Below are positions 1 to 20,444 of a stretch of DNA of 23,165 bases, in pieces. The position numbers were made by a program, and so were the translations under genes. This DNA is from a virus. Its lineage: Duplodnaviria; Heunggongvirae; Uroviricota; Caudoviricetes. The notes beneath the pieces were generated by a model, which saw only the letters and a program-made list of their open reading frames with translations, did no database searches and was not told the DNA's origin. Each line of letters opens with the position of its first letter. Within the stretch, counting starts at the first letter, position 1. The stretch lies in the IMG/VR virus record IMGVR_UViG_2585427789_000019. One strand, written 5' to 3'.

Positions 1-275
1 CAGCGTTTCCGCCATTTCTTCCTGAAGTGCGCTGATTCGCTCCTGTGCTTCCTGTATCTGCCGTTCGGTTTTAGCGCGAAGTTTTTCTGAGCTTTTACCG
101 AACTGCATGCGCTGCAGTTTCGCAACCAGCGCCTTCAGCCGGTTGATTTCGGAAGCATAAGCCGCCACCCGCTGTGAGAGCAGGCGGTTGTATTTCGCCA
201 TCTGGCGGATGGTGTCCTGTTGCGTCTGCAACAGTGCCCGCAGGCGGGCATTCTCATGAGCAAGTGAGGTGTCCA
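1..275 (-). CDS. tnpC: IS66-family transposase TnpC, N-terminal portion only (gene runs off window edge)
   Basis: Minus-strand translation from the ATG at 275..273 gives MDTSLAHENARLRALLQTQQDTIRQMAKYNRLLSQRVAAYASEINRLKALVAKLQRMQFGKSSEKLRAKTERQIQEAQE..., the leucine-zipper N-terminus typical of IS66 transposases; the frame is open to position 1. Confidence 0.75.
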
Positions 276-295
276 TATCCTCACTTTACAACGGG

Positions 296-643
296 TTATA
301 TGCGGATGCCAGCGCGTTCCGTTCGTTTCGGGTGCTTCCAGTCGATGCCTTCGAGAAGCATGGACAACTGAGCCGGAGTAAGGTGAACCTTTCCATCGCG
401 GGTGACCGGCCAGACGAAGCGGCCCCGCTCCAGGCGTTTGGTGAAGAGGCACAGTCCGTCACTGTCAGCCCACAGCACTTTTATCTGGTCACCCCGGCGT
501 CCGCGGAAGATGAACAGATGCCCGGAGAACGGGTCATCCTTCAGGACGTTCTGAACTTTTGAGGCCAGGCCGTTAAAGCCATTTCGCATATCGGTGATAC
601 CGGCAACCAGCCAGATACGCGAACCGGCAGGGAGAGATATCAT
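296..643 (-). CDS. tnpB: IS66-family TnpB (Orf2) accessory protein
   Basis: 115 aa (MISLPAGSRIWLVAGITDMRNGFNGLASKVQ...), the characteristic size and sequence of IS66 Orf2; its start overlaps the tnpA stop (ATGA). Confidence 0.8.
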   Translation of the reverse strand: MISLPAGSRIWLVAGITDMRNGFNGLASKVQNVLKDDPFSGHLFIFRGRRGDQIKVLWADSDGLCLFTKRLERGRFVWPVTRDGKVHLTPAQLSMLLEGIDWKHPKRTERAGIRI

Positions 644-1293
644 CAGTGGCTGCTCCCTTTCATTTCGCGGATAAGTGTCTGTAATAACGCCGGTGTCAGT
701 TCACCTTTCAGCCTGAGAGTTCCGGCCGGCAGAACCAGCTCGCAGCACAGACTGTCTGGCAGTGTATTTATCTGTTCAGGTATCTGCACTGGTGCCGGGA
801 TTTTATTATCCGGCTCCGGAGTTAACGTCACGGGAAGTAGCGATGTTTCATGTTCGCCGGGCGGTTGCAGGCCACCGTTACGCCAGAGATGCCGCCAGTT
901 AAAGAGCAGGTTATCGTTAATTCCATTCTCTCGAGCTATTTGTGCGACACAGGCACCGGGTAAAAGAGTTTGCTGAACCAGTCTCCATTTAAACTCCGGT
1001 GAAAATCGGTTCCGGCGGGGTTTCTCTGCTTTCACAGGCTGAGTCACGGTCGGGGCTGAAGGGTATCGCCCCGGGAAAAGAGCCCGGGCCAGTTGCCCGC
1101 AGGAATATTCACCGGAAAGAGGCCAGTCAGTGAATACCTGGTGAAATCGCCTCACCAGAGAAAAAATGGCGGTTTTGCTGACACCAGTCTGCGCAGAAAT
1201 GCGCGGGTACGACAGTGACTCGTCAAATCTCAGCTGTAGCACACGCAGGATCAATTCTGGATTATCTGCCAGTACCGCTTTTCGTGCATTCAT
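643..1293 (-). CDS. tnpA: IS66-family TnpA (helix-turn-helix accessory protein); true start may be internal
   Basis: 216-aa ORF with an IS3/IS66-type HTH segment (RFSPEFKWRLVQQTLLPGACVAQIARENGINDNLLFNWRHL) directly upstream of and coupled to tnpB. Confidence 0.65.
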   Translation of the reverse strand: MNARKAVLADNPELILRVLQLRFDESLSYPRISAQTGVSKTAIFSLVRRFHQVFTDWPLSGEYSCGQLARALFPGRYPSAPTVTQPVKAEKPRRNRFSPEFKWRLVQQTLLPGACVAQIARENGINDNLLFNWRHLWRNGGLQPPGEHETSLLPVTLTPEPDNKIPAPVQIPEQINTLPDSLCCELVLPAGTLRLKGELTPALLQTLIREMKGSSH

Positions 1294-1379
1294 CTTAAAT
1301 GTCCTTTTACTGCGAAAATGGACATTAGTATCGGAAACAGGAAAGGGAGGCGAAAGACGGTTTAAATGATGCGCTTACC

Positions 1380-2251
1380 ATCTTCCTGACCGCAGGCGTT
1401 GATGTTCCATCTGCTCGCTTAGCCGCCTTGGTATGTACAAACACCCATTTGTGATGCTTGCCTATTTGATCACGCAACACTTTACAGGCGGTATCGTTCA
1501 GCGCCACACCAATGGCGCGGTTTGATTTGCTCTCTTCTGGATTCACCCAGGCAACTCGTCGCTGCATGTCGATTTGTTGCCATTCCAGATTTATGATGTT
1601 CGACTTTCTCAGACCAGTTGCCAGCGCAAACTTGACGACAGATTTCAGTGGTTCGGGGCACTCATCAATAAGGCGTTTTGCTTCCTCCTTTTCCAGCCAT
1701 CTGACTCGCTTGTTTCTGACCGCTGGTATCTTGATGACAGGCGCTTTTTCCAGCCACTTCCAGTCGCGTTCTGCAGCACGGAGAATGGCCTTTCTCATGG
1801 CAAGATGCTTTGCCTTTGTCTGAGTTGGTACTGGCTTTGGTTCATAAACAGGCAGTTCTTTACCTTTCCTGATGGCGGCCTGAACTTTCTGTTTCCATAT
1901 TTCTTTCGTCTTTCTGTTATGCATTCTGCTTACAGCAGAGTAAATCTTTGCCTCCGAGATATCTTTAAGCCTTATACCCTCAAAATGTTCAAGCCAGAAC
2001 TCAATCCGGCTTTTATCTGAATCGAGAGATTTTTTATCAGCTTTTTCCTCAAGCCATCTTAGGCAGGCCTCTTCAAAAGTGACATCAGGTAAATCCCCTA
2101 GCTTTTCTACTCGCCAGAGTTCTGCTTTTCGCTTGTCGTGCAACTCCTGAGCTTGCCGCTTGTCCTTTGTGCCAAGAGATTCCTTAATTCGTTTCCCGCC
2201 CGGGAGCGAATACGAGGCATACCATATTTCATTTCTGCGGAAGAGTGACAT
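1380..2251 (-). pseudogene. intD: Lambdoid prophage tyrosine integrase, 3' end truncated by IS66-family insertion
   Basis: N-terminal about 290 codons read as a phage integrase ([46 protein letters not shown]...) including the box I arginine region ([18 protein letters not shown]). The C-terminal catalytic box II (H-x-x-R ... Y) is absent; beyond about codon 291 the frame reads IS-derived sequence. Confidence 0.8.
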
Positions 2252-2478
2252 TTTCTTTCCTCTGTTATGCCATCACCCGCGCTCACCTGGACAGTATGCA
2301 GCGGAGACTGAAGCGCCGCAATGCAGGCTTGCCGTGTTGTGAGGTAAGGAGATTTTGGCTTGGTTGGATCTTTACGTGTTGCCTGTAGGCGGCCTGTTCG
2401 TATCCAGTTGGTGGCGGTTGGTCTGGATATCTTAAGAAACTGACAGGCCTCATCGAGTGTGAGGCTGTATGATTCCAT
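2107..2478 (-). CDS. xis: Excisionase (AlpA/Xis-type HTH), 3' end overlapping the integrase start
   Basis: ATG at 2478 with upstream aggtaa; [57 protein letters not shown]... contains an excisionase-type HTH. The 123-codon length and long overlap with int are unusual, so the 3' end is uncertain. Confidence 0.55.
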
Positions 2479-2728
2479 GGTTACCTCTGCTTTTTGAACG
2501 CATGTCACGTAACTTCTTAATGTGTTCTGCCGTTTCGATCTCTTCTGCTATCCGATCTGCATCAGCTTTATTCACAGGTTCAAAGTCATGATTAAAGCGG
2601 AACATGCTGGCGATACATGTTCTGCCTTTTCGGATGTAGTGAACTTTGTTGTGGGTAGAACGCAGGATTTTGCAGGGAGTGCCGTGGTGGTCGACGTACC
2701 AGGTGTTAGGCAAAATGATTCTGAACAT
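2450..2728 (-). CDS. Hypothetical prophage early-left protein (92 aa)
   Basis: ATG at 2728 preceded by a GAGGTG Shine-Dalgarno; same orientation as the xis/int operon; no family recognised. Confidence 0.5.
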   Translation of the reverse strand: MFRIILPNTWYVDHHGTPCKILRSTHNKVHYIRKGRTCIASMFRFNHDFEPVNKADADRIAEEIETAEHIKKLRDMRSKSRGNHGIIQPHTR

Positions 2729-4950: not shown

Positions 4951-6477
4951 ATGAAAAAAGCCATAGCATATATGCGATTTTCATCACCAGGTCAGATGTC
5001 TGGCGACTCATTAAACCGACAGAGAAGACTTATTGCTGAATGATTAAAGGTAAATAGTGATTATTATCTTGATACCATAACATATGAAGATTTAGGATTA
5101 AGTGCATTCAAAGGAAAGCATGCACAATCAGGAGCTTTTTCGGAATTTTTAGATGCTATAGAGCATGGTTATATATTGCCAGGAACTACATTGTTAGTTG
5201 AAAGTCTGGACAGACTTTCAAGAGAAAAAGTCGGTGAAGCGATTGAACGTCTGAAATTGATTTTGAATCACAGTATTGATGTTATAACTCTTTGCGACAA
5301 TACAGTCTATAATATTGACTCTTTGAATGAGCCATATTCATTAATAAAAGCCATACTTATAGCACAAAGGGCAAATGAAGAAAGCGAGATAAAGTCAAGT
5401 CGGGTTAAATTATCATGGAAGAAAAAACGGCAGGATGCACTGGAATCAGGTACGATTATGACGGCGTCTTGTCCGAGATGGCTCTCCTTAGATGACAAAA
5501 GAACGGCTTTTGTTCCAGACCCCGACAGGGTGAAAACTATTGAGCTAATTTTTAAACTCAGGATGGAAAGGCGCTCATTGAATGCAATAGCCAAGTATTT
5601 AAATGATCATGCTGTAAAGAATTTCTCAGGAAAAGAAAGTGCATGGGGACCTTCTGTAATTGAAAAATTATTAGCGAATAAAGCTCTGATAGGTATATGC
5701 GTACCTTCATATCGTGCAAGAGGGAAAGGGATAAGTGAAATCGCTGGCTATTATCCCAGAGTCATATCAGATGATTTGTTTTACGCTGTACAGGAAATTC
5801 GGTTGGCACCTTTTGGTATTAGCAATAGTAGCAAGAATCCTATGCTAATAAATCTACTTCGAACAGTTATGAAGTGTGAGGCTTGTGGTAATACCATGAT
5901 TGTTCATGCGGTATCTGGAAGTTTGCATGGCTATTATGTTTGTCCGATGAGAAGATTACATCGATGTGACAGGCCATCAATAAAAAGAGATTTGGTTGAT
6001 TATAATATCATTAATGAATTGCTTTTTAATTGTAGCAAAATTCAACCAGTTGAAAACAAGAAAGATGCTAATGAAACTTTAGAGTTAAAAATTATTGAGC
6101 TTCAGATGAAAATTAATAATTTAATCGTTGCATTGTCTGTCGCGCCTGAAGTTACCGCTATAGCAGAGAAAATAAGACTATTAGATAAGGAATTACGAAG
6201 GGCTTCGGTATCATTGAAAACTTTGAAGAGTAAAGGTGTAAATTCATTCAGTGATTTTTATGCTATTGACTTAACCAGTAAAAATGGACGAGAGTTATGC
6301 CGTACACTTGCCTATAAAACATTCGAAAAAATCATAATTAATACGGATAATAAAACCTGTGATATCTATTTTATGAATGGCATTGTTTTTAAACACTATC
6401 CTTTAATGAAAGTAATATCCGCCCAGCAGGCGATAAGTGCTCTCAAATATATGGTTGATGGTGAGATTTATTTCTAA
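4951..6477 (+). pseudogene. ybcK: Serine recombinase YbcK-like, interrupted by an in-frame TGA at codon 31 (5041..5043)
   Basis: ATG at 4951 with aggtg Shine-Dalgarno gives MKKAIAYMRFSSPGQMSGDSLNRQRRLIAE, then TGA, then the same frame continues LKVNSDYYLDTITYEDLGLSAFKGKHAQSGAFSEFLDAIEHGYILPGTTLLVESLDRLSREK... to 6477 (508 codons if read through). The N-terminal piece carries the resolvase-type catalytic serine motif (YMRFSS..Q). Confidence 0.75.
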
Positions 6478-6858
6478 ATAATGATCTCGGATTTTAAGTT
6501 ATGCTATGGTGATAAAGTGCAAGACAGAATTAATTATCTTTGACGAAACTTAATGGGTAATTACTTTGTTTGCTCCCACAAGCGAGTTTTGTACGGCTGT
6601 ATTGGGGTAGTAAATGAGCTATACAATCTTAATCATTTGTTAGGTGAGAACTCTTGGTCGCAGATTCAAATACTGAAAATACGTGACAAATTATTATGAG
6701 CAAAATGGTGTATGTCACGTATTTTGAATGGTAGGTTAAAAAATAACACCGACTTTCGTAGGTATTACTAATAATAAAGCAGAGTTTTTAGATAGTATCA
6801 ATGTGCTTTGTGTATATTGTGGCAAATAATTGGGTTGGGGGTACAATTGTGATTGCTT

Positions 6859-10577: not shown

Positions 10578-11660
10578 TTAGAACTGATACACCAGACCTA
10601 CAGCGACGATGTCGTCGGTATCAATACCAGCTGTTTTGGTAAACTTACTATCGTCAATTAAGTTGATTTTGTAATCAACAAAAGTGGACATGTTTTTATT
10701 AAAGTAGTAAGTAGCACCGACATCGACATACTTGACTAAGTCTCGGTCACCATGAACACCAAGGTCTTTACCTTTTGACTGAAGGTAAGCAACAGATGGT
10801 CGCAGACCGAAGTCAAACTGATATTGTGCTACTGCTTCAAAGTTTTGTGCTTTGTTTGCAATATGGTTATTACCAAAAACGGTCATATTCTGAGTTTCAG
10901 AATATGTGGTAGCCAGATAGATATTGTTCGCATCATATTTCAGGCCTGCAGCCCATACTTCCGCATTTTTGCCGGAGGCATTGAATTTGCTCTTACCATA
11001 GGCGACCTGACCGTCAGTGCGATCTGATTTAGCATAGGTTGCACCCACGCCGAATCCTTCATACTCATAAGTAGTGGAGAAACCGAAACCATCACCATTG
11101 GCTTCAGTTACGTCAGTGCGGTCATTTTTACCCTGATACTGAGCAGCAAAGTTCAGGCCATCGACCAGACCAAAGAAGTCGTTGTTACGATAGGTTGCAA
11201 CACCAGTGGTGCGACCAGTCATGAACACATCTGTTTGGGTCCAGGTATCGCCACCGAATTCTGGCAGAACGTCAGTCCACGCACCGATGTCGTATGCTAC
11301 ACCGTAGTTACGGCCGTAATCGATTGAGCCGTAGTCACCGAATTTCAGGCCTGCAAATGCAAGACGGGTTTTGTCTTTGGAGGAACCTTGAGATTCAGCG
11401 CGGTTGCCTTTGAATTCATATTCCCACTGACCGAAACCAGTCAGTTGATCGTTGATTTGGGTTTCACCTTTGAAGCCAAGACGGGCATAAGTAGTATCAC
11501 CATCATCTGCATCGTTAGAGGAAAAGTAGTGCTTGGCATTAACTTTCCCGTACAGATCCAGCTTGTTACTGTCTTTATTATAAATTTCAGCTGCCTGAGC
11601 AGACATCGCCATCAGTACTGATGCAGCTACAGCAGAAATTGCCACTGTTAATTTTTTCAT
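10578..11660 (-). CDS. nmpC: OmpC/OmpF-family outer-membrane porin (NmpC-type), apparently intact
   Basis: 360 aa with signal peptide ([23 protein letters not shown]), porin beta-strand pattern and C-terminal ...VGLVYQF; uninterrupted reading frame. Confidence 0.9.
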
Positions 11661-14464: not shown

Positions 14465-14690
14465 TTTGCGGGTCCTTTCCGGCGATCCGACAGGTTACGG
14501 GGCGGCGACCTCGCGGGTTTTCGCTATTTATGAAAATTTTCCGGTTTAAGGCATTTCCGTTCTTCTTCGTCGTAACTTAATGTTTTTATTTAAAATACCC
14601 CCTGAAAAGAAAGGAAACGACAGGTGCTGAAAACGAGCTTTTGGGCCTCTGTCGTTTCCTTTCTCTGTTTTTGGCCGTGGAATGAACAAT
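14465..14690. other. Lambda-type cohesive end site (cosQ-cosN-cosB)
   Basis: cgatccgacaggttacg followed by GGGCGGCGACCT (cosN, 14499..14510) and cgcgggttttcgctatttatgaaaattttccggtttaagg..., near-identical to the lambda right-end/left-end junction as I recall it, running into the Nu1 start. Confidence 0.75.
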
Positions 14691-15264
14691 GGAAGTCAAC
14701 AAAAAGCAGCTGGCTGACATTTTCGGTGCGAGTATCCGTACCATTCAGAACTGGCAGGAACAGGGAATGCCCGTTCTGCGAGGCGGTGGCAAGGGTAATG
14801 AGGTGCTTTATGACTCTGCCGCCGTTATAAGATGGTATGCCGAAAGGGATGCTGAAATTGAGAACGAAAAGCTGCGCCGGGAAGTTGAAGAACTGCGGCA
14901 GGCCAGCGAGACAGATCTCCAGCCAGGGACTATTGAGTACGAACGCCATCGACTTACGCGTGCGCAGGCCGACGCACAGGAGCTGAAAAATGCCAGAGAC
15001 TCCGCTGAAGTGGTGGAAACCGCATTCTGTACTTTCGTGCTGTCGCGGATCGCAGGTGAAATTGCCAGTATTCTCGACGGGATCCCCCTGTCGGTGCAGC
15101 GGCGTTTTCCGGAACTGGAAAACCGACATGTTGATTTCCTGAAACGGGATATCATCAAAGCCATGAACAAAGCAGCCGCGCTGGATGAACTGATACCCGA
15201 ACACGGCACTGGTCGGCGTGCAGGTGGACTCGGAGCAGTTCGGCAGCCAGCAGGTGAGCCGTAA
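14689..15264 (+). CDS. nohD: Terminase small subunit (Nu1 homologue) with a non-native C-terminal tail from a deletion junction
   Basis: [71 protein letters not shown]... matches lambda Nu1 through ...[14 protein letters not shown], then diverges ([21 protein letters not shown]) as the frame runs into J-derived DNA. Confidence 0.8.
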
Positions 15265-18040
15265 TTATCATCTTCGCGGGCGCATTCTGCAGGTGCCGTC
15301 GAACTATAACCCGCAGACGCGGCAATACAGCGGTATCTGGGACGGAACGTTTAAGCCGGCATACAGCAACAACCCGGCCTGGTGTCTGTGGGATATGCTG
15401 ACCCACCCGCGCTACGGCATGGGGAAACGTCTTGGTGCGGCGGATGTGGATAAATGGGCGCTGTATGTCATCGGCCAGTACTGCGACCAGTCAGTGCCGG
15501 ACGGTTTTGGCGGCACGGAGCCGCGCATCACCTGTAATGCCTACCTGACCACGCAGCGTAAGGCGTGGGATGTGCTCAGTGATTTCTGCTCGGCGATGCG
15601 CTGTATGCCGGTATGGAACGGGCAGACGCTGACGTTCGTGCAGGACCGACCATCAGATAAGGTGTGGACCTATAACCGCAGTAATGTGGTGATGCCGGAT
15701 GATGGCGCGCCGTTCCGCTACAGCTTCAGCGCCCTGAAGGACCGCCATAATGCCGTTGAGGTGAACTGGATTGACCCGAATAACGGCTGGGAGACGGCGA
15801 CAGAGCTTGTTGAAGATACGCAGGCCATTCTCCGTTACGGTCGTAACGTCACGAAGATGGATGCCTTTGGCTGTACCAGCCGGGGGCAGGCACACCGCGC
15901 CGGGCTGTGGCTGATTAAAACGGAGCTGCTGGAAACGCAGACCGTGGACTTCAGCGTGGGTGCCGAAGGGCTTCGCCATGTACCGGGCGATGTCATTGAA
16001 ATCTGCGATGATGACTATGCCGGTATCCGCACCGGCGGGCGCGTGCTGGCGGTAAACAGCCAGACCCGGACGCTGACGCTCGACCGTGAAATCACGCTGC
16101 CATCTTCCGGCACCACGCTGATAAGCCTGGTTGACGGGCAGGGGAGTCCGGTCAGCGTGGAGGTTCAGTCCGTCACCGACGGCGTGAAGGTGAAAGTGAG
16201 CCGTGTTCCTGACGGCGTTGCTGAATACAGCGTATGGGGGCTGAAGCTGCCGACGTTGCGCCAGCGCCTGTTCCGCTGCGTGAGTATCCGTGAGAACGAC
16301 GACGGCACGTATGCCATCACCGCCGTGCAGCATGTACCGGAAAAAGAGGCCATCGTGGATAACGGGGCGCACTTTGACGGCGACCAGAGCGGCACGGTAA
16401 ATGGTGTCACGCCGCCAGCGGTGCAGCACCTGACCGCAGAAGTCACCGCAGACAGCGGGGAATACCAGGTGCTGGCCCGCTGGGATACGCCGAAGGTGGT
16501 GAAGGGCGTGAGCTTCCTGCTTCGCCTGACCGTGGCAGCGGATGACGGCCGTGAGCGACTGGTCAGCACGGCCCGGACGACGGAAACCACTTACCGCTTC
16601 ACACAACTGGCTCTGGGGAACTACAGGCTGACAGTCCGGGCAGTAAATGCGTGGGGGCAGCAGGGCGAGCCGGCGTCGGTATCGTTCCGGATTGCCGCAC
16701 CGGCAGCGCCGTCGCAGATTGAGCTGACACCGGGGTATTTTCAGATAACCGCCACGCCGCATCTTGCGGTTTATGATCCGACGGTACAGTTTGAGTTCTG
16801 GTTCTCGGAAAAGCGGATTGCGGATATCAGGCAGGTTGAAACCACAGCACGCTATCTTGGCACGGCGCTGTACTGGATAGCCGCCAGTATCAATATCAAA
16901 CCGGGCCATGATTATTATTTTTACATCCGCAGTGTGAACACCGTTGGCAAATCGGCATTCGTGGAGGCTGTTGGCCAGCCGAGTGATGATGCATCCGGCT
17001 ATCTGAATTTTTTCAAAGGAGAGATAGGGAAAACCCATCTGGCTCAGGAGTTGTGGACGCAGATTGATAACGGTCAGCTTGCGCCTGACCTGGCGGAAAT
17101 CAGAACGTCCATCACGGATGTCAGTAATGAAATCACGCAGACCGTCAATAAGAAACTGGAAGACCAGAGTGCGGCAATCCAGCAGATACAGAAGGTTCAG
17201 GTTGATACAAATAATAACCTGAACAGCATGTGGGCTGTGAAGCTGCAGCAGATGCAGGACGGACGCCTTTATATCGCGGGTATTGGTGCCGGTATTGAGA
17301 ATACCCCTGACGGTATGCAGAGTCAGGTGCTGCTGGCGGCGGACAGGATTGCGATGATTAATCCTGCGAATGGCAACACAAAGCCGATGTTTGTTGGTCA
17401 GGGCGATCAGATATTCATGAACGAAGTGTTCCTGAAATATCTGACGGCTCCCACCATTACCAGCGGCGGTAATCCTCCGGCATTTTCCCTGACACCGGAC
17501 GGGCGGCTGACGGCGAAAAATGCCGATATTAGCGGTAACGTGAATGCGAACTCCGGGACGCTCAACAACGTCACGATTAACGAGAACTGCCGGGTTCTGG
17601 GAAAACTGTCCGCGAACCAGATTGAAGGCGATCTCGTTAAAACAGTGGGCAAAGCTTTCCCCCGGGACTCCCGTGCACCGGAGCGGTGGCCATCAGGGAC
17701 CATTACCGTCAGGGTTTATGACGATCAGCCGTTTGACCGGCAAATTGTTATTCCGGCGGTGGCATTCAGTGGCGCTAAACATGAGCAAGATCATACTGAT
17801 ATCTACTCCTCATGCCGTCTGATAGTACGAAAAAACGGTGCTGAAATTTATAACCGAACGGCTCTGGATAATACGCTGATATATACGGGTGTTATTGATA
17901 TGCCTGCAGGCAGTGGTGTAATGACACTGGAATTTTCTGTATCGGCATGGCTGGTAAATGGCTGGTATCCCACAGCAAGTATCAGCGATTTGCTGGTTGT
18001 GGTGATGAAGAAAGCCACTGCAGGCATCATGATTAGCTGA
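15218..18040 (+). CDS. J: Tail-tip host-specificity protein J, N-terminally truncated fragment (about 940 codons); probably a non-functional remnant
   Basis: ...[108 protein letters not shown]... matches internal lambda J sequence as I recall it; no native N-terminus or Shine-Dalgarno, and the frame opens at the nohD junction. Confidence 0.85.
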
Positions 18041-18098: not shown

Positions 18099-20444
18099 AT
18101 GGCAGTACAGATTTCAGGTGTGCTGAAAGATGGTGCGGGAAAACCAATACAGAACTGCACTATTCAACTGAAGGCAAAGCGTAACAGCACCACGGTACTG
18201 GTGAACACGGTGGCCTCTGAAAATCCGGATGAAGCCGGGCGTTACAGCATGGATGTTGAGCATGGCCAGTACAGCGTCACCCTGCTGGTTGAAGGTTTTC
18301 CGCCTTCACATGCCGGAACCATTACCGTCTATGAAGGTTCCAGACCAGGTACGCTGAATGATTTTCTCGGTGCCATGACGGAAGATGATGTCATGCCGGA
18401 GGCATTGCGTCGTTTTGAGGCAATGGTGGAAGAAGCGGCACGCAACGCCGAAGCCGCCTCTCAGAGCGCAGCGGCGGCAAAGAAATCCGAAACTGCAGCG
18501 GCATCATCGAAGAACGCGGCGAAAACCTCAGAAACGAATGCAGCTAACAGCGCACAGGCGGCAGCGTCCTCGCAGACTGCATCGGCAAACTCCGCGACAG
18601 CAGCCAAAAAATCAGAAACCAACGCGAAAAACAGCGAGACAGCCGCAAAGACGAGCGAAACCAACGCAAAGTCCAGCCAGACGGCAGCGAAAACCAGCGA
18701 AACGAATGCCAAAGCCAGTGAAACTGCGGCGAAAAATAGCCAGAATGCAGCAGCCGAAAGCGAGAGCGCGGCAGCCGGTTCTGCGACTGCAGCAGCTGGA
18801 TCAGCAACTGCTGCGGCTAACAGCCAGAAAGCAGCGAAGACGAGCGAAACTAACGCAAAGTCCAGCCAGACGGCAGCGAAGACCAGCGAAACAAATGCCA
18901 AAGCCAGCGAAACTGCGGCGAAAAGCAGTCAGGATGCAGCAGCCGAAAGCGAGAGTGCTGCAGCTGGTTCTGCAAGTGCGGCGGCTGCTTCTGCCACTGC
19001 ATCAGCAAACAGTCAAAAAGCTGCAAAAACCAGTGAAACCAATGCAAAGACAAGCGAGACTGCAGCGGCGAACTCGGCGCAAGCATCGGCAGCAAGCCAG
19101 ACAGCAGCTAAAGCAAGTGAGGATGCAGCCAGAGAGTATGCAAGCCAGGCAGCAGAGCCGTATAAATATGTCTTACAGCCACTGCCTGATGTGTGGATAC
19201 CGTTTAACGATTCACTGGATATGCTTGCTGGCTTTTCGCCTGGTTATAAGCAAATAACCGTAGGTGATGATGTTATTAAAATGCCATCCGATAAGGTTGT
19301 TAGCTTCAAACGCGCATCAGGTGCAACATACATTAATAAATCAGGTGTATTAACCGTTGCTGAAGTTGACGAACCGCGATTTGAACGAGAAGGTTTGCTG
19401 ATTGAAGGACAGAGAACAAACTATTTCAGAAATTCAAATACACCAGAAGCATGGAATAACACGGGTAGTGTGTCTGTTGAGTCGTTCGACAGTGATAAGG
19501 GGTTTAACTATGGAAGGATAACTGTTATTAATGAAAATCCGACAGCACAAGGATATCAGGCAATTGCTGTAAACACGAATGATGCTTACACCTGCCCGGC
19601 AGGTTCTTATACGACGATATCGTGTCTGACGAAAAGTGATAATTCCCGGTGTCGTGCAAGGTTCGGAAAAATGTCTGATAATGGTGCGTTTGTTTTTCAT
19701 TCAGATGCAGTTCTGGATCCTGTTACGGGAAATGTTGTTCATGGAAATAATGTGACGGTGACGGCAGAAAGAGTCGGTGAATGGTGGTTGTTTACCGCCA
19801 CTCTTTTTGCAGATGCGGAAATGATAATCAGCTCAAGATTTGAAATCCTGGCGATGCCTGGAATCAGTATTATCCCCAATGGCTCTACGTTAGATATTGC
19901 GATGCCTCAGGCGGAGATTGGGTCGTACAGGACGTCATTTATCATTACTGAAGGGGCTCCTGGCACTCGCTCCAGCGACATGGTGACAATACCTGTAAGA
20001 AACAATATTCACCGATTACCATTCAGTGCTCTTGTTGAAGTTAATAAAAACTGGGATATCCCTCCCAGCAAATCACCATTAATCTTTAATGTTAAAGATT
20101 ATCAGGAAAATGGTCTGTTCACGCATGGATTCCGTGGTAATAATTTCTCTGATGCCGGTTCTCCTTTTATTTCTATGGGAGGGTGTAATAAATATGTGGC
20201 AACAACCCAGAGGAAAATCATTTCAGGCTTCCGTTGTGGCGCTGATGGAGATGTTCAGGCCGTATGTAATGGTGAATTATCTGTTGCGGCAAAAACAACA
20301 TGGACTTCAATTGTTCCACGGGCAGTATTGCGAATTGGAGGGCAGGGCACTAATGGGGAGTATCATCTTTTTGGTCATATCCGTAATCTGCGTATCTGGC
20401 ATAAAGAATTAACTGATGCGCAAATGGGGGAGAGTATTAAATGA
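18099..20444 (+). CDS. stf: Side tail fibre protein (lambda Stf-like N-terminus, Ala/Ser-rich repeat shaft, non-lambda C-terminal domain)
   Basis: ATG at 18099 with ggag Shine-Dalgarno; MAVQISGVLKDGAGKPIQNCTIQLKAKRNSTTVLVNTVASENPDEAGRYSMDVEHGQYSVTLLVEGFPPSHAGTITVYEGSRPGTLNDFLGAMTEDD... matches the Stf N-terminus; followed by AAKTSETNAK-type repeats. Confidence 0.85.
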   Translation: MAVQISGVLKDGAGKPIQNCTIQLKAKRNSTTVLVNTVASENPDEAGRYSMDVEHGQYSVTLLVEGFPPSHAGTITVYEGSRPGTLNDFLGAMTEDDVMPEALRRFEAMVEEAARNAEAASQSAAAAKKSETAAASSKNAAKTSETNAANSAQAAASSQTASANSATAAKKSETNAKNSETAAKTSETNAKSSQTAAKTSETNAKASETAAKNSQNAAAESESAAAGSATAAAGSATAAANSQKAAKTSETNAKSSQTAAKTSETNAKASETAAKSSQDAAAESESAAAGSASAAAASATASANSQKAAKTSETNAKTSETAAANSAQASAASQTAAKASEDAAREYASQAAEPYKYVLQPLPDVWIPFNDSLDMLAGFSPGYKQITVGDDVIKMPSDKVVSFKRASGATYINKSGVLTVAEVDEPRFEREGLLIEGQRTNYFRNSNTPEAWNNTGSVSVESFDSDKGFNYGRITVINENPTAQGYQAIAVNTNDAYTCPAGSYTTISCLTKSDNSRCRARFGKMSDNGAFVFHSDAVLDPVTGNVVHGNNVTVTAERVGEWWLFTATLFADAEMIISSRFEILAMPGISIIPNGSTLDIAMPQAEIGSYRTSFIITEGAPGTRSSDMVTIPVRNNIHRLPFSALVEVNKNWDIPPSKSPLIFNVKDYQENGLFTHGFRGNNFSDAGSPFISMGGCNKYVATTQRKIISGFRCGADGDVQAVCNGELSVAAKTTWTSIVPRAVLRIGGQGTNGEYHLFGHIRNLRIWHKELTDAQMGESIK
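18648..19026 (+). repeat. Imperfect 189-bp tandem duplication (63 codons x 2) inside stf, itself built from 21-bp Ala/Ser/Thr-rich sub-repeats
   Basis: Units beginning aagacgagcgaaac at 18648 and 18837 are near-identical for the first 120 bp or so (KTSETNAKSSQTAAKTSETNAKASETAAK.S...AAAESESAAAGSA...). Confidence 0.8.

Follow-up and report, generated by a model that had tools for sequence, protein, structure and literature searches.

At one end of a stretch of prophage DNA, analysed over its full 23,165 nucleotides and referred to here as the window, the reading frame of a phage integrase runs directly into an insertion sequence. The locus raised two questions: what brought the integrase gene and the insertion sequence together, and what the event cost the prophage. 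The explanation that we regard as very likely is a simple insertion of IS679 into the intD gene of prophage DLP12 in the E. coli 2-222-05_S4_C2 lineage; the insertion would have split the gene and removed IntD-dependent excision, with small practical effect.

Identity of the insertion sequence and of the integrase

The insertion sequence was identified by megablast of positions 1-2700 against 5,426 complete E. coli genomes, in which the first ~1378 bases matched thousands of copies of the IS66-like element IS679. Positions 1-1378 (minus strand) corresponded, with 0 mismatches, to positions 1327-2704 of a complete 2704-bp IS679 in strain FDAARGOS_1059, and many further copies in E. coli genomes matched at 99-100%. 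The same 1378 bp, the tnpA-proximal part of the 2704-bp element, shared 100% identity with positions 5372-6749 of locus L002, where they form part of a complete 2704-bp IS679 with an 8-bp duplication on both flanks. The transposase of the identical copy is annotated as 'IS66-like element IS679 family transposase'. IS679 itself was reportedly first described by Han and colleagues in J Bacteriol in 2001, on plasmid pB171 of EPEC B171.

The three genes of the element lie on the minus strand. tnpA (643-1293) encodes a 216-aa IS66-like accessory protein (NF038385, 6e-85; HTH_Tnp_1, 7.5e-17), and tnpB (296-643) encodes a 115-aa IS66 accessory protein (PF05717, 2.8e-40; NF033819, 5e-38). The two genes overlap at TGATG (641-645), which holds the stop of tnpA and the start of tnpB. 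Position 1 falls within tnpC, and only the first 92 of the 523 codons of this DDE transposase gene (1-276, ATG at 276-274) are present; they carry the PF13007 LZ_Tnp_IS66 match (E=7e-7), whereas the DDE domain of TnpC lies beyond the window. The full-length TnpC homologue at L002 matched NF033517 at 2.7e-142. The hallmarks of the IS66 family found in the window were the order tnpA-tnpB-tnpC, the tnpA/tnpB overlap, a TnpB of the IS66 Orf2 type, and the N-terminal leucine zipper of TnpC, the last recognised in the 92 residues available. The terminus of the element is at 1378, where its reverse complement reads GTAAGCGCATCATTTAAACCG and the inverted repeat begins GTAAGCG. The left terminal inverted repeat (IRL, 1354-1378, minus strand; reverse complement beginning GTAAGCGCATCATTTAAACCGTC) was compared with the right repeat (IRR, GTAAGCGGCTCGCCAGAACCGTA) as observed in the identical complete L002 copy only, the position of the IRR here being outside the window. 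The two were identical at positions 1-7, 10-11, 17-22, and 24-25, and with the opposite end of the complete copy reading GTAAGCGGCTCGCCAGAACCG, the two ends compared, one from the window and one from that copy, are imperfect inverted repeats of the IS66 type.

On the integrase side, positions 2251-1379 (873 nt, minus strand) align without a mismatch to the intact 387-aa intD of strain AST19 and supply codons 1-291 of this DLP12 tyrosine integrase gene. The homology to intD ends exactly at the IS679 terminus. From there, the ORF map and the comparison with intact intD placed a tail of 17 codons plus stop read from the IS end (1325-1378, minus strand), giving a 308-aa ORF (1325-2251, minus strand) of 291 IntD residues and 17 IS-encoded residues. 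The arm-type and core-binding domains are kept in this fragment, and its residues 184-291 align to profile positions 1-117 of 172 in PF00589 (Phage_integrase). The positions of the catalytic residues come from an alignment with HP1 integrase and XerC/D structures. R215 (box I, ATGLR) and K242 are present in the retained ORF, and H314 and R317 (HDLRH), W340, and the nucleophile Y349 (RRYAHL) are missing from it, lying in the lost 96 residues. A member of the lambda Int family carries R, K, H-x-x-R, H/W, and Y together on a single chain; the retained ORF does not. A tyrosine recombinase that lacks the tyrosine nucleophile and other active-site residues cannot catalyse recombination. Because the catalytic His, Arg, Trp, and Tyr residues are absent, the retained fragment should be unable to recombine; loss of integrase activity can soundly be inferred, and we take the ORF to be a gene fragment of a tyrosine recombinase family member and not a functional member. 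The finding is useful for annotation, since the 308-aa product labelled 'phage integrase family protein' is an IntD-IS679 read-through chimera instead of a functional integrase.

An initial annotation of the window, made from the letters and ORFs, had described a prophage integrase cut by an IS66-family element, intact for about 290 codons up to about position 1379, with the box I arginine kept and the C-terminal catalytic region lost, next to a tnpA-tnpB-tnpC layout whose tnpC leaves the window. This description proved accurate in each detail open to checking: the codons number 291, the IS ends at 1378 with intD following from 1379, and both partners could be named without a mismatch. Megablast and the comparison with a complete copy also supplied the name of the element within 1..1379 and its inverted repeat, the GTAAGCG repeat at 1378.

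Origin and age of the junction

The right end of IS679, the second flank of the insertion and the rest of int all lie beyond the window, and the far side was approached through sibling copies. Three complete 2704-bp IS679 copies elsewhere, two of them in intD, were flanked by perfect 8-bp duplications (GTTCTTCC, CGCTTAGC, and GATAAAAG), CGCTTAGC being that of FDAARGOS_1059. By analogy with these copies, positions 1379-1386 (no strand assigned), which contain the intD M291 codon, are predicted to be one copy of the target-site duplication CATCTTCC, and a second CATCTTCC would flank the right end. A simple insertion further predicts the far junction GTCGATGCGCATCTTCC|GTAAGCGGCTCGCC (in its longer form GTCGATGCGCATCTTCC|GTAAGCGG) and a 97-aa remnant ORF. 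The 31-mer of the predicted far junction gave 0 matches in the genome, viral, and metagenome contig collections. The 97-aa ORF starting at M291 was found in the protein collection, in many unrelated truncation contexts, and was rejected as a marker of the junction.

The insertion site was also inspected for features of its own. It contains a perfect 10-bp palindrome, GATGCGCATC (window 1375-1392; L005 2994-3003), and the heptamer GCGCATC occurs both there and in the left inverted repeat of IS679 (GTAAGCGCATC); we make no claim on target choice from either. No target consensus for IS679 was found in the IRL flanks of 12 viral contigs and 4 genomes. In E. coli O111:H2 12A (L001, 4563-8540), IS679 has inactivated a second integrase: a different tyrosine integrase gene is interrupted close to its 3' end by an IS679 that is flanked by the duplication GTTCTTCC and adjoins a copy of ISEc8; the likeness of GTTCTTCC to CATCTTCC was treated as coincidence.

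IS679 and intD share their orientation, and a simple insertion would have split intD in two. Part one is the 291-residue N-terminal fragment, with arm-binding and core-binding domains, R215 and K242, fused to 17 IS residues. Part two would be a predicted 96-residue remnant beyond IS679, persisting beside argU, with H314, R317, W340, and Y349. Since neither piece would hold the full active site, IntD-dependent attL x attR excision is expected to be abolished. A related integrase acting in trans might nevertheless be able to excise the prophage.

The junction was rare. The exact 308-aa protein is on deposit as KDX84258.1 and KEO19457.1, both from E. coli 2-222-05_S4_C2 drafts, and the chimeric ORF and junction were also found on one ENA metagenome scaffold; every contig with the junction stops inside the repeated IS679. 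Among the 5,426 complete E. coli genomes, the IS679-intD junction was found in 0. The 21.8-kb flank (1379-23165) was 100% identical to DLP12 of AST19 and of other strains with an intact 387-aa intD. As both partners and the flank are 100% identical to uninterrupted copies elsewhere, the insertion appears to be recent, and the sequence data point to a strain- or lineage-limited event. The allele is already known from public draft genomes and is the product of an ordinary event, involving a known IS, a known gene, and a known cryptic prophage.

The main competing explanation is that IS679 marks a larger rearrangement, either an adjacent deletion or recombination with another copy, by which the 3' end of intD, and perhaps attL/argU, were displaced. 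We consider this unlikely. It would fit the fact that the window and all junction contigs stop inside IS679, and it has a parallel in O145 RM9154-C1, where an IS3-family element 2-3 nt from this site joins a truncated essD on its other side, an IS-associated deletion. Genomes that matched the 2.7-kb query (IS plus intD) did so at a median of 2 and a maximum of 22 places, which in some of them provides several IS copies as substrates for recombination. However, all three complete IS679 copies examined were simple insertions with 8-bp duplications, and the N-terminal part of intD is unchanged up to the IS terminus. Moreover, argU is the tRNA gene adjoining intD, and its loss would probably be costly.

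A simple insertion could also have been retained for a new use, with IntD 1-291 and its 17 IS residues serving a DNA-binding or regulatory role. The fragment does keep the arm-type and core-binding domains, and deletion of intD in K-12 was reported to affect early biofilm formation (PMC3105296). We nevertheless judge such a role to be improbable: the allele is both scarce and young, none of the complete genomes has it, neither partner has diverged, and intD has been truncated elsewhere in many unrelated ways, which is what neutral decay would produce. Copies of intD that are broken or cut short are widespread; among 2,886 genomes with a match to a 601-nt segment of the gene, 143 covered <80% of that segment. 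The same points weigh against the suggestion in the initial annotation that the insertion indicates a domesticated element, which we do not retain; the host benefit that it ascribed to the surviving genes comes from the established literature on DLP12 and is not demonstrated by the insertion. Finally, an assembly chimera created by the repeated IS at a contig end is very improbable. The contigs do terminate in a multicopy repeat, but the same junction and 308-aa ORF recur across separate NCBI entries and on an ENA metagenome scaffold unrelated to them, and the break point coincides exactly with GTAAGCG, the canonical end of the IS.

Break points in intD

The IS679 insertion in the window is one of a series of lesions in intD, a gene hit repeatedly by ISs, and we compared their positions, given here relative to the A of the M291 codon. 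Other insertions in intD at the argU locus were independent of the IS679 in the window, and their positions differed from it. IS679 was found in FDAARGOS_1059 (duplication -42 to -35) and, in the opposite orientation, in E100341 (-636). ISCro1 was found in A34 (duplication -125 to -118), an IS3-family element in G5 (-61) and at intD in O145 RM9154-C1 (-3), IS1 in locus L010 (-38), and IS5 in locus L112 (-720). Deletions without an IS ended at -112/-113 in L011 (partner in xis), the L013 type (partner a DUF1317 gene), and L145 (partner a DUF1382 gene), at -40 in L012 and L017, and at -2 to -4 in the L008 type, L014, and the L015 type; the last group lies ≤3 nt from the IS679 insertion in the window. 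The deletion junctions showed microhomologies of 1-4 nt.

Break points seemed to cluster at three points in intD, near -112, -40, and -3, where insertions (IS679, IS3-family, IS1) and deletions with different partners ended ≤5 nt apart. This comparison covered window 1379-1386 and intD -113 to +3 in loci L008-L017, L031, L088, L089, L145, and L154. For 17 distinct events between -240 and +20, 19 pairs fell within 4 nt, versus 4.7 expected (p ~1.5e-4). In the subset of events found independently of the 97-aa ORF look-up, the p value for clustering was 0.44, and the observation is therefore kept as suggestive only. That the IS679 site in the window is one of three narrow hot spots (~-112, -40, and -3) is accordingly a tentative proposal, which we think doubtful. 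The ISCro1 insertion in A34 was rejected as the source of the -112 cluster, as its duplication at -125 to -118 is 13 nt away.

At the O145 RM9154-C1 locus (L154, 3580-5320), the IS3-family element is situated between the truncated essD and intD from -3, and the DNA from the N-terminal part of intD to the lysis cassette is deleted. This arrangement is a possible IS-retaining intermediate of the deletions that lack an IS. For IS629, excision of the IS together with flanking DNA at microhomologies has been described for IEE (PMC9943667; bioRxiv 10.1101/2023.06.07.543989), which promotes such IS-excision-associated deletions (Kusumoto et al. 2011; PMC9943667). A mechanism of this type could explain why IS-less deletions in intD share endpoints with IS insertions. 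IEE-type deletions have been described for the IS3, IS1, and IS30 families; IS66 is not mentioned in bioRxiv 10.1101/2023.06.07.543989. If the clustering is true and not the result of ascertainment, there are two possibilities: local sequence may direct transposition to these points, or an IS may be lost again and again through deletions that also take flanking prophage DNA. The second possibility would make the deletion endpoints those of a 'ghost IS', and IEE-like excision-deletion would then reach sites that an IS66-family element uses as well. Under either, prophage integrase would be lost by a recurrent, quasi-directed route. The possible clustering bears on how IS activity shapes prophage decay, and it is the only lead from this locus with some novelty.

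Prior decay of DLP12 and comparison with known systems

Apart from IS679, the window belongs to DLP12, a cryptic lambdoid prophage located next to argU and fimZ in the matching strains. It carries the DLP12 gene set, and 1379-23165 is 100% identical to annotated DLP12 beside argU and fimZ. argU itself is outside the window, as is attR, a repeat of the argU 3' end located between ompT and envY. By identity to AST19 and annotation, the genes within 2252-23165 are DUF4222, traR-like, dam', P', ren, emrE, ylcJ, ybcK (with an internal stop), ybcLMN, ninE, ybcO, rusA, ylcG, quuD, an nmpC-like porin gene, essD-rrrD-rzpD, iss/bor, ylcI, a fusion of small terminase and tail tip, tail-fibre genes, and appY.

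Several of these genes were decayed in ways that bear on excision and growth. An excisionase (xis-like) ORF overlapping the start of int (2107-2508, minus strand) is degenerate, matching HTH_17 (1.5e-8) over profile positions 2-32 of 51. It scored 27.4 against TIGR01764 'excise' (positions 2-31 of 49), below the cutoff of 28.8, and in AST19, E100341, and G5 the annotation treats the ORF as an incomplete pseudogene. Replication protein P and dam are truncated. At 14689-18040 (plus strand), the ORF of a nohD-like small terminase continues straight into a TipJ/J-like tail-tip ORF without its N-terminus, and this fusion implies one large deletion that took the large terminase, the portal, the head genes, and most tail genes. 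The internal deletions mentioned in the initial annotation were thus borne out by the terminase/tail-tip fusion and the truncated P.

Other features of the prophage were noted in passing. The DLP12 serine recombinase gene ybcK (4951-6477, plus strand) has an in-frame TAA at codon 31 and is another inactivated recombinase in this prophage. Between 18501 and 19000 the AT skew is extreme (0.59), and this interval coincides with tandem repeats of 21/42/189 nt (18596-19067, plus strand). The repeats code for KTSETNA-like units, rich in Ala, Ser, and Thr, within the N-terminal domain of a side tail fibre, a protein that is truncated in relatives. The nmpC/ompC-like porin gene (10578-11660, minus strand) is an intact 360-aa ORF. 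The K-12 nmpC copy is interrupted by IS5, and in some relatives (E100341 and L010) an IS1 lies beside the porin gene.

The effect of the intD insertion has to be weighed against this background. The initial annotation held that the insertion left the prophage unable to excise by its own integrase. The first part of this argument stands, in that the retained fragment has no complete active site, but the decay of xis and large deletions had grounded DLP12 before it, and the insertion is a redundant extra lesion. With no functional excisionase, few of its replication genes and hardly any morphogenesis genes left, the prophage was defective beforehand, and the practical effect of the insertion would be small. 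Even with an intact intD, DLP12 of K-12 excises in <1 per 100,000 cells (PMC3105296). The finding adds a further IS insertion to those recorded in the integrase gene of this defective, well-studied prophage, and is of little importance alone; it illustrates the continued build-up of redundant grounding lesions in DLP12.

Compared with known systems, the insertion sequence does not differ from IS679 as described: the part in the window, the tnpA-proximal 1378 bp only, is identical to annotated 2704-bp copies and shares their tnpA-tnpB-tnpC order and, at the one end present, their GTAAGCG repeat. The integrase gene is that of DLP12 in E. coli K-12, for which PMC6379469 cites Lindsey, Mullin and Walker 1989. 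The two have the same argU locus and neighbours and are 99.8% identical over the 601-nt segment (100% for the AST19 copy), but the K-12 gene is uninterrupted, whereas the copy in the window is broken after codon 291, with the catalytic H, R, W, and Y separated from the rest. Among grounded prophages, Qin with its inactive intQ (PMC3105296) likewise has an inactivated recombination module, and the IS-disrupted Stx prophage of Shigella dysenteriae, as cited in PMC6379469, is likewise locked by integrase loss, which in DLP12 came by way of an IS. Unlike in Qin and the S. dysenteriae Stx prophage, DLP12 had been grounded beforehand, so that IS679 added a further, redundant lesion to a prophage already held in place.
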